Shown: piece after piece, positions 1,054-2,350 of the stretch
Layout: each line of letters starts with the position of its first letter
How positions within the stretch are numbered: the first letter of the stretch is position 1
Virus record (IMG/VR): IMGVR_UViG_2700989509_000013
DNA from: a virus
Lineage: Duplodnaviria; Heunggongvirae; Uroviricota; Caudoviricetes
Direction: 5' to 3' (one strand)
DNA length: 9,417 nt
Made by a program: the position numbers and the translations under genes
The notes under the pieces: generated by a model
Databases searched by the model: none
What the model was told of the DNA's origin: nothing
What the model saw: only the letters and a program-made list of their open reading frames with translations

Positions 1054-1185
1054 CGTGACGTTCCTTTGGGTGGGTGAGCCAACGCCCGGGAGCGATCTGC
1101 CCACAGAGAAAGTCACACTGACCACTCCGTAAGCTCCCCCCCGAAAGGCTCTGTGGTTGGTATGCGCCGGGCGTGGCGCAGATAC

Positions 1186-1209
1186 AAAAAAGGCCCGCAA
1201 AAGCGAGCC
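1186..1209 (-). terminator. Rho-independent terminator downstream of the tRNA cluster (minus strand)
   Basis: Minus-strand hairpin: 7-bp stem (1192-1198 with 1203-1209, one G-U), UUUU loop, followed by a U6 tract (plus A-run 1186-1191). Confidence 0.5.
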
Positions 1210-1225
1210 GGGAAAATAAGTGTAG

Positions 1226-1299
1226 CGCGTTGTACTGGAGTCGAACCAGTGACCGATTGCTTAGAAGGCAATTGCTCTGTCCTGCTGAGCTAACAACGC
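1226..1299 (-). tRNA. tRNA-Arg (anticodon UCU)
   Basis: Clean cloverleaf on the minus strand: acceptor GCGTTGT/ACAACGC, D-arm GCTC/GAGC, anticodon stem ATTGC/GCAAT with loop CTTCTAA, T-arm ACTGG-TTCGACT-CCAGT. CCA not encoded. Confidence 0.9.
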
Positions 1300-1312
1300 A
1301 GAATACCGATAA

Positions 1313-1388
1313 TGGACCACCACCGGGGACTCGAACCTCGCACACTCAACTTAAAGGGTTGACGCTCTTTCCTGATGGCTAGTGGCGG
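1313..1388 (-). tRNA. tRNA-like gene, structurally degenerate (possible pseudo-tRNA; anticodon loop CCUUUAA would read UUU)
   Basis: Acceptor CCGCCAC/GTGGTGG pairs (one G-U) and CCA is encoded; anticodon stem TCAAC/GTTGA is perfect. D-stem has only 2 pairs (GCCA vs GAGC), T-stem has an A-C mismatch, position 33 is C not U, discriminator is U. Confidence 0.45.
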
Positions 1389-1389
1389 T

Positions 1390-1465
1390 TGGTGGCCCTT
1401 GCTGGATTTGAACCAGCGACCTGGCGATTATGAGTCGCTCGCTCTCACCACTGAGCTAAAGGGCC
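1390..1465 (-). tRNA. tRNA with anticodon CAU (Ile2/Met type, ileX/ileZ-like), CCA encoded
   Basis: GGCCCTTTAGCTCAGTGGTGAGAGCGAGCGACTCATAATCGCCAGGTCGCTGGTTCAAATCCAGCAAGGGCCACCA: 7-bp acceptor, GCTC/GAGC D-stem, loop CTCATAA, T-arm GCTGG-TTCAAAT-CCAGC. Closely resembles remembered E. coli ileX. Confidence 0.9.
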
Positions 1466-1474
1466 GGGCGCAGG

Positions 1475-1503
1475 ATAATAACGTTACGAAATCAATGTTG
1501 CAA
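1475..1503 (-). promoter_or_regulatory. Candidate sigma70 promoter for the tRNA cluster (possible late promoter)
   Basis: Minus strand: -35 TTGCAA (plus 1498-1503), 17-bp spacer, -10 TATTAT (plus 1475-1480), ending about 8 nt upstream of the tRNA 5' end at 1465. Confidence 0.4.
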
Positions 1504-1570
1504 GCATACAAAAATCACCCTTATCTCCTCCACCAGCGCATTCACCATGTCTATCCGAGATAAGTGGCAC

Positions 1571-1600
1571 AAAAAAACCCGCTTGTGGGCGGGTTTTGTT
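1571..1600. terminator. Bidirectional rho-independent terminator between Q-like gene and tRNA cluster
   Basis: Hairpin CCCGC-TTGTGG-GCGGG (1578-1593) flanked by A7 (1571-1577) and TTTTGTTT (1594-1601); gives a U-tract on either strand. Confidence 0.55.
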
Positions 1601-1660
1601 TGCTTTTGCCATCACGTACAAAATCGGCAAAATATCAGATTTGCATGAAATATATGCCTT

Positions 1661-2350
1661 TCAATCTACTTTTGCAACACTTTGCTTTGAAAATGCCGCC
1701 TTTTGTTTTGAACGTGTTCTCATTACAAACAATAAAGCCTCACTATCCAGTCGGTGAAAAATGTGTTTCATTGCAACCCAGTGACGAGTAAATGTTTTGG
1801 ACCAGTTTTTAGTTGTCACTCCCGCCAGTAATGCCAGCTCCTGATATTCATAACCTTCCCCACCAAAAAGTTCTGCTTTTACTGCCTGCGCCGCCAGCCA
1901 GATTAATTTTTTCAGGCGTTCCTGCGTTTTCCCAGCAATTTTTCTGGTACCGGATTGAGTATTAAATTCATTCCACGCCCACTGTGTTATCGCGATCTGA
2001 TATTCCCAACAAATACTCCCGCTGTAACACCACAACAACCAGGCTTTATGATGTTCTTCAAGAGACAGAACAGCCCGCCGCCACGATGATGTCGAAAACT
2101 CAACCGGACTGACCAGAGGAATTGACGTCACCTTCGCCAGCGATTGCTTTCCCGGGATTGGTGGATTATCCCGCGTTATCATTTTTCCAGTCACTTCATC
2201 GCGGTACCGGATTTTTTTTCGCCTGTAACGCCCTGTATCGAACATGGCATTCTCCTGCCAGGCTTCAAGCTGACCTTTTGTTGCCCCACTCAAATCAGCG
2301 GTGGCGATAATGAGCTGCTCACGCACAAACTGTAAATAGTGGTTATTCAT
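1661..2350 (-). CDS. Putative late antiterminator Q-like protein (229 aa from ATG 2350)
   Basis: Intact ORF directly downstream of rusA with ATGA stop/start overlap at 2347-2350, followed by terminator and tRNAs as in lambdoid Q regions. Assignment rests mainly on synteny; family not confirmed by motif. Track start at 2356 is GTG. Confidence 0.5.
   Translation of the reverse strand: MNNHYLQFVREQLIIATADLSGATKGQLEAWQENAMFDTGRYRRKKIRYRDEVTGKMITRDNPPIPGKQSLAKVTSIPLVSPVEFSTSSWRRAVLSLEEHHKAWLLWCYSGSICWEYQIAITQWAWNEFNTQSGTRKIAGKTQERLKKLIWLAAQAVKAELFGGEGYEYQELALLAGVTTKNWSKTFTRHWVAMKHIFHRLDSEALLFVMRTRSKQKAAFSKQSVAKVD

Follow-up and report, generated by a model that had tools for sequence, protein, structure and literature searches.

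The question raised by this locus is where the late genes of the phage are switched on, and what the DNA between the antiterminator gene Q and the first of three tRNA genes contributes to their control. The window analyzed here is the whole stretch of 9,417 nt from the Caudoviricetes virus record IMGVR_UViG_2700989509_000013; all coordinates are window coordinates and the relevant genes all lie on the minus strand, in the order rusA, Q (2350-1661), a 195-nt interval (1660-1466), three tRNA genes, and a hairpin with a T-run at 1209-1186. A preliminary description of the interval had tentatively taken a promoter sequence next to the first tRNA, TTGCAA-17-TATTAT (here called pT), for the late promoter with its Q-utilization (qut) site. 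With a probability of roughly 0.88, the interval is better read as a standard late-control region in which a phage-82-type Q is followed by the mobile tRNA module of ileZ type that Stx phages carry. The earlier interpretation is therefore partly supported: the interval does appear to hold late-transcription control elements, with the tRNAs inside the Q-antiterminated late transcript, while the promoter assignment and a supposedly unusual order of elements were wrong; the order matches that of phage 933W. The arrangement itself is ordinary and already described. The elements at the end of Q are the following.

1661-2350, minus strand: gene Q, late-gene antiterminator of phage 82 type (229 aa; Pfam PF06323, E = 1e-90).
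1649-1677, minus strand: putative late promoter pR' of 82 type (-35 TTGCAA at 1677-1672, 17-nt spacer, -10 TATATT at 1654-1649).
1642, minus strand: predicted pR' transcription start (seventh nucleotide after the -10 hexamer; initial transcribed sequence AAA).
1626-1637, minus strand: predicted sigma70-dependent pause element (extended -10-like TGaTATTTT at +6 to +14, 1637-1629, then GCC at +15 to +17, 1628-1626).
1617-1619, minus strand: predicted promoter-proximal pause site (G +24 at 1619, U +25 at 1618, +26 at 1617).
1613-1673, minus strand: candidate qut region with Q-binding and pause elements (the equivalent of -31 to +30 of the phage 82 late promoter, 82pR', mapped via +1 = 1642).

Besides pT, a promoter scan picked up TTGCAA-17-TATATT on the minus strand at 1677-1649. 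This second promoter-like site overlaps the Q stop codon (TGA, 1663-1661) and had been overlooked in the preliminary description; six promoter-like sites fall within 900-2400, compared with 1.3 ± 1.2 in shuffles. The Q protein shares 76% identity with that of phage 82 across all 229 residues and 73% with the "Q82-like" Q encoded by phage 434; a search of solved structures with it returned one weak, irrelevant match only. The -35 hexamer of the second site sits within the last codons of this PF06323 gene, that is, at the 3' end of a Q82-family Q, where a late promoter of this type would lie. The preliminary description had also held that the order of elements differs from that of lambda; it does not, because the late promoter comes straight after Q, with an overlap in this case, as in lambda, 82 and 933W. 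The late promoter of phage 82, with its qut site, a sigma70-dependent pause at +25 and a downstream terminator, has been studied in the Roberts and Hochschild laboratories, and its original sequence, from Q to the late promoter, reportedly dates from work by Goliger and Roberts in the late 1980s. It has been reported that the Q-binding element and the pause element of 82pR' both lie within -31 to +30 (PMC4914094). According to Bird et al. (PMC5001585), authentic 82pR' has an initial AAA, a TATAAT-resembling pause element including an extended -10, GCC at +15 to +17 and U as the native base at +25; that +24 is G can be deduced from their comment that inserting 1 nt at +18 brings a G to the pause site (PMC5001585), and the pause is located at +25/+26 (PMC5001585; PMC3326312). 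With +1 set at 1642, all five landmarks are found in the window, namely AAA at +1 to +3, TGaTATTTT at +6 to +14, GCC at +15 to +17, G at +24 and U at +25.

When the site was aligned with phages 434 and 82, the -35 hexamer TTGCAA proved to be shared with the last codons of phage 82 Q; downstream of the hexamer, phage 434 has TATACT, TCATGCAAAT and TGGTATGTT, and then a terminator annotated in the 434 record. The conservation of the region was further compared in eight phages with a Q of the 82 type, which represent four genera (E. coli, Enterobacter, Salmonella and Klebsiella). TTGCAAAA is invariant in all eight and the -10 hexamer is conserved; past the stop codon, TCATGyAAAT and TGnTATnnT are conserved at fixed spacing, the latter 40 nt from the start of the -35 hexamer in every phage, with identical offsets, and the non-coding stretch past the stop is better conserved than the codons immediately upstream. 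In seven of the eight, a G+C hairpin with a T-run follows 40-70 nt further on, and these hairpins are not homologous to one another. A late promoter with qut and tR' would be expected to look like this, with a conserved promoter and early transcript and with terminators that are analogous, not homologous. In the phage 434 record (OL657226, 966-979), the palindromic TTGCAA at the Q end is annotated as the -35 hexamer of an antisense promoter, paQ, with a CII site, and not as pR'; by the present comparison, this hexamer would be the -35 of pR' as well.

The second element that the interval would need is a terminator shortly downstream of the promoter.

1571-1600, minus strand: tR', putative intrinsic terminator (stem CCCGC 1593-1589 / GCGGG 1582-1578, extended by A-U pairs, then U7 at 1577-1571).

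The hairpin described earlier about 60 bp past the Q stop, between A7 and T-rich tracts, is indeed present: it begins 60 nt past the stop, its arms (1571-1582 and 1589-1600) are 92% complementary around a 6-nt loop with CCCGC/GCGGG as the core stem, and it is flanked by A7 at 1571-1577 and by a T-rich tract. It spans 42-71 nt past the predicted start at 1642, so that the 82-type pR' has a hairpin with U7 shortly downstream, and it aligns with the annotated terminator of phage 434. Folded as minus-strand RNA, 1571-1600 reaches -16.4 kcal/mol (z = -4.1; 0/200 shuffles as stable), and the plus-strand RNA reaches -16.1 kcal/mol. The fold is therefore stable on both strands, and with its flanking A and T tracts the hairpin looks bidirectional, as had been proposed, but there is no sign that bidirectionality matters, because no plus-strand gene converges on the hairpin. 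A further comparison comes from phage Evi. Its Q belongs to the lambda family (PF03589), and its pR', which is lambda-like (TAAATT...AACGATGGG), stands directly before a hairpin, spacer, pT and tRNAs homologous to those of the window; the homology starts at 1595, within the hairpin, and extends over all of these elements up to and including the tRNAs. Since Evi and the window share the hairpin, one terminator would serve as tR' behind two different Q/pR' cassettes. From its sequence and position, the hairpin at 1600-1571 is assigned as tR', the first terminator that Q must override, and not merely as the terminator at the end of the Q operon.

Joined together, these elements suggest the following circuit, whose steps are carried over by homology from characterized systems, the observations being sequence homology, conservation, positions and folds. 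The constitutive promoter pR' (1677-1649), overlapping the Q end, would start transcription at about 1642; sigma70 would re-bind TGaTATTTT (+6 to +14) and hold the polymerase at about +25 (1618), and there Q bound at a DNA site within -31 to +30 could load onto the paused polymerase. Without Q, transcripts would end at tR' (1600-1571 with U7), and the product would be a constitutive ~72-nt RNA; with Q, the polymerase would pass tR', the tRNA genes and the 1209-1186 terminator and proceed into the late genes. Meanwhile, pT would act as a sigma70 promoter with its start 2-4 nt before the tRNA, so that the tRNAs would be made in the lysogen and their transcript would end at 1209-1186. In the Stx2a phage of strain Sakai, PR' has been reported to be constitutively active and terminated at tR' (PMC7547250).

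The promoter next to the tRNAs then has to be accounted for.

1475-1503, minus strand: pT, putative tRNA promoter (-35 TTGCAA at 1503-1498, 17-nt spacer, -10 TATTAT at 1480-1475).

TTGCAA-17-TATTAT does abut the first tRNA, as the preliminary description had it: the -10 hexamer ends 9 nt short of the tRNA 5' end (1465), and the gap is filled by the G+C-rich stretch CCTGCGCCC (1474-1466), which we take to resemble the discriminator of stable-RNA promoters. In 933W, the feature annotated as "pT; putative tRNA promoter" reads TTGCAG-17-TATTAT and lies directly upstream of a tRNA with a CAT anticodon, and the window site aligns with it column for column, CCTGCGCCC included. Set beside the late region of an Stx phage, the window has the same order as 933W, but the site proposed as late promoter matches pT instead. 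BLAST comparison showed that homology with Stx2c phages begins at window position 1504, and with many E. coli prophages at 1503, the first base of the -35 hexamer; pT is matched in hundreds of E. coli prophages, with homology from 1503/1504. Upstream of the pT-tRNA unit, five unrelated contexts were found: the Q82-type tR' and spacer of the window, a Q21-type region in phage 2851, the methyltransferase remnant of the 933W type, a full-length DNA methyltransferase gene, and IS200; pT travels with the tRNAs whatever lies upstream. The Q genes adjoining the unit belong to three Pfam families, PF06323, PF06530 and PF03589. When the five contexts were aligned, TATTAT and TTGC were invariant and the spacer was always 17 nt, while 6 of its 17 positions varied. 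In the Sakai Stx2a phage, moreover, a primary start site from which the tRNAs are transcribed has been mapped to the DNA separating tR' from stx2AB (PMC7547250). On these comparisons, the site at 1503-1475 is identified as pT, the putative promoter of the tRNA module itself. The tRNA module, which brings along a putative promoter and a terminator, is shuffled behind late promoters of differing Q specificity, which is relevant to the assembly of Stx phages and their relatives.

The preliminary description implied a different circuit, in which 1503-1475 is a Q-dependent late promoter with qut, displaced from Q, and the hairpin at 1600-1571 only ends the Q operon. Such a reading could draw on the 9/12 match of TTGCAA-17-TATTAT to the sigma70 consensus with a 17-nt spacer, and on the location of the site upstream of everything that Q must read through, but it is highly improbable. 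The site aligns with 933W pT; each Q protein recognizes its own binding element specifically, yet the identical unit stands behind three unrelated Q families and also where no Q is adjacent, so that pT, being common to three Q specificities and lying behind a methyltransferase gene and IS200 as well, cannot be a Q-specific utilization site. In addition, the sequence transcribed from pT is directly a tRNA, without a -10-like pause element, and a much better candidate with all of the 82pR' landmarks lies at 1677-1613. It could be argued instead that pT is a non-functional relic and that Q-dependent read-through from pR' is the sole source of the tRNAs, since the 933W annotation says only "putative" and the -35 hexamer is imperfect (TTGCAA). 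This is quite unlikely, given that TATTAT and TTGC are kept across divergent contexts while 6 of the 17 spacer positions vary, that the boundary of the module coincides with the -35 hexamer in many independent recombinants, and that the tRNA-driving primary start mentioned above was detected in a lysogen with a homologous module (PMC7547250).

The remaining element to be weighed is an inverted repeat in the DNA between tR' and pT.

1504-1570, minus strand: spacer between tR' and pT, containing an 8-nt inverted repeat (1520-1527 / 1557-1564) and an open reading frame (ORF, 1548-1492).

A long inverted repeat had been placed at 1519-1560; the repeat CTTATCTC/GAGATAAG exists, but its arms lie at 1520-1527 and 1557-1564, 1-4 nt away, with 29 nt between them. 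That it is functional, as a protein-binding palindrome or as an RNA stem-loop that modulates read-through or tRNA processing, has very little probability, even though a 55-nt segment folds at -17.5 kcal/mol (z = -3.0; 1/200 shuffles as stable). When the 195-nt interval was shuffled with its dinucleotide composition kept, a perfect 8-nt inverted repeat with a loop no longer than 60 nt turned up in 15% of cases, so that by itself the repeat is at chance level. In a comparison of about 64 related copies, variation is greatest in the right arm (GAGCTAAG, GAAGTAAG, GAAGCAAG and GAGGTAAG) and the left arm is nearly invariant; a compensatory change that keeps the pairing was looked for across these relatives and not found, the right-arm variants breaking pairs. 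Because the right arm varies without compensation in the left, the pairing is not maintained. The spacer itself occurs only in this lineage and in phage Evi; modules of the 933W and 2851 types lack it entirely. The inverted repeat at 1520-1564 is accordingly regarded as incidental and without conserved function, and the interval as a late-control region followed by a tRNA module remains the preferred reading.

Several points weigh against this reading. The comparison with 82pR' was made through five landmarks described in text and with phage 434 as a proxy, not base by base, because the phage 82 record used ends at the Q stop codon. Phage 434 itself reads GTA at +15 to +17, unlike the GCC of 82 and the window. 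The terminator scan called the 1571-1600 hairpin on the plus strand only; the minus-strand terminator was missed because the stem was extended into A/T pairs, which consumed the U-tract, and if the stem is limited to its five G+C base pairs, a canonical U7 tail remains on the minus strand. Transcription, pausing, Q loading and termination at this locus are inferred. Furthermore, the circuit may no longer matter in this strain, because the prophage may be defective, with an apparent pseudogene after the tRNA module. The result is chiefly a correction, by which pR' and qut would be annotated on the Q end, tR' at 1600-1571 and pT before the tRNAs, and it leaves the current understanding unchanged.

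The arrangement can be compared with several known systems. Like phage 82, the window has a closely related Q with the -35 hexamer in its last codons, the five landmarks of the transcribed region, and an intrinsic terminator shortly downstream; unlike phage 82, about a quarter of its Q residues differ and a tRNA module follows tR'. In the 933W record (NC_000924), the order is Q, a pR' that overlaps the stop codon of Q, qut, two terminators, pT, ileZ-argN-argO, a terminator, and stx2A (stx2AB). The window resembles it in the order of elements and in homologous pT, ileZ-type tRNA, argO-type tRNA and module terminator. It differs in that Q, pR' and tR' are of another family (PF06530 in 933W and PF06323 in the window), in that the DNA between tR' and pT is unrelated, being a methyltransferase remnant in 933W, in that its middle tRNA is degenerate with a TTT anticodon whereas 933W argN has TCG, and in that no stx genes follow in the window. 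The sequence upstream of pT in 933W-type phages (933W ~1470-1580) looks like a 3' remnant of a DNA methyltransferase gene, and in other prophages this gene is full-length and directly upstream of pT (enterotoxigenic E. coli, ETEC, NZ_LR882997, 1-689). Weak E. coli matches to pT were considered as chromosomal ileX/ileY; this was rejected for the two that were fetched, which are prophage modules behind IS200 and the methyltransferase.

The transcript that would end at tR' can also be compared with short phage RNAs.

1571-1642, minus strand: predicted short pR'-tR' transcript of ~72 nt (5' hairpin 1632-1626 / 1610-1604 plus the terminator hairpin).

The lambda 6S RNA is 194 nt long. The predicted window RNA has no sequence similarity to it, and a regulatory role would be by analogy only. 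The predicted RNA folds at -20.9 kcal/mol (z = -3.0). Full-length matches at its bounds were obtained with two Rfam families, both below the gathering score: isrJ (RF01393), with 24.5 bits against 37, and isrK (RF01394), with 22.7 bits against 50. Membership in isrK was rejected, as the match is driven mostly by the terminator. The isrJ consensus has at its 5' end uguAaauCUGAUAuC, which is the conserved Q82-type initial transcribed sequence including the pause element; because the consensus begins in this way, Salmonella IsrJ may itself be a short pR'-type transcript. Short antitermination-regulated RNAs have been reported for lambda, 21, phi80, 82 and P22, and in Stx phages the equivalent short RNA is the precursor of the StxS small RNA (PMC7547250). 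As with lambda 6S RNA and StxS, a constitutive late promoter on the Q end would give a short RNA up to tR' unless Q acts (PMC7547250); unlike in Stx phages, the predicted RNA is ~72 nt, compared with a PR'-tR' distance of 258 nt (PMC7547250), and there is no sequence similarity. In Salmonella Gifsy-1, the IsrK RNA is encoded immediately after the Q-like AntQ, and its 3' end is set by a rho-independent terminator (PMC4825925). Unlike Gifsy-1 IsrK and IsrJ, the window RNA scores below the Rfam gathering thresholds, and its middle part is unrelated.

The spacer also contains an 18-codon ORF (MVNALVEEIRVIFVCLQH*) at 1492-1548 on the minus strand, between tR' and pT, which has 23 codons in copies with a 15-nt in-frame duplication. 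This 15-nt presence/absence polymorphism is a direct duplication, GGTGATTTTTAACCA/GGTGATTTTT, at 1504-1520 (minus strand); the window has the short form, and O157:H7 strains such as Xuzhou21 have the long form. Across 16 haplotypes, the frame of the ORF has 8 synonymous and 6 non-synonymous substitutions, compared with 1-5 synonymous in the other five frames. This excess of synonymous changes (P ~0.01 before correction for six frames) is no more than suggestive. The possibility that the spacer is a remnant of a larger gene was rejected, as a tblastn search of a phage collection with the 23-aa peptide matched this locus only; the ORF is annotated as a hypothetical protein in one phage record. 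It is doubtful, though conceivable, that the ~72-nt RNA (1642-1571) is a trans-acting, Hfq-binding small RNA of the IsrJ/StxS kind, or else that the 18-23-codon ORF (1548-1492) is a translated late micro-protein.

Downstream of pT, the tRNA module consists of the following features.

1390-1465, minus strand: tRNA with anticodon CAT, ileZ-type tRNA-Ile2 (called Met by ARAGORN; Rfam tRNA model, 72.5 bits).
1313-1388, minus strand: degenerate middle tRNA at the argN position, anticodon TTT (called Lys(ttt) by ARAGORN; 1-nt deletion in the D arm).
1225-1299, minus strand: tRNA-Arg, anticodon TCT, argO type (ARAGORN; Rfam tRNA model, 68.1 bits; aligns with 933W argO).
1186-1209, minus strand: predicted intrinsic terminator at the end of the tRNA module (hairpin 1209-1192 and T-run to 1186; -14.0 kcal/mol, z = -3.3).

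The gene with the CAT anticodon is annotated as tRNA-Ile in RefSeq, and its 933W equivalent is ileZ. For the middle tRNA (1313-1388), the Rfam tRNA model gave no match at E <= 1 in the window, and even the undeleted copy in Evi scores 37 bits, compared with 68-72 bits for the neighboring tRNAs. The anticodon loop reads CCTTTAA and has C at position 33, compared with CTTCGAA in 933W argN, and the anticodon stem has compensating changes. It probably represents a tRNA that is decaying or has been re-specified, although it carries the annotation tRNA-Lys in RefSeq and GenBank. The 1186-1209 hairpin had been proposed as a terminator that Q must override, and the evidence agrees: besides the stable fold listed above, it is conserved in 933W, 2851 and Evi, and its 933W counterpart is annotated as [quoted passage not shown].

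As for the wider context, BLAST showed that window positions 1150-1720 are 99.8% identical to the "PPompW" lambdoid prophages deposited with Stx2a phages, and by this similarity the window is classed as a PPompW-type lambdoid prophage. Of 5426 complete E. coli genomes, 887 contain at least 80% of the stretch 1440-1700, which includes the predicted ~72-nt RNA; E. coli 2013C-3264 matches the window with 100% identity across this stretch. In the deposited PPompW prophages (LC567818, 4580-6038), ISEc20 is inserted ~9 bp past the end of the region common with the window (window ~1141) and is followed by terminase genes; the window has no insertion sequence at ~1141, where these prophages carry ISEc20. 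The first gene past the tRNA terminator, at ~620-1053 on the minus strand, is a homologue of a 143-aa hypothetical protein of phage Evi. It appears to be pseudogenized, with an early stop of the ATG frame after an A-run (GGTAAAAAAAGC) and an in-frame TAG (917-915) in the long frame, which suggests that the prophage is decaying.

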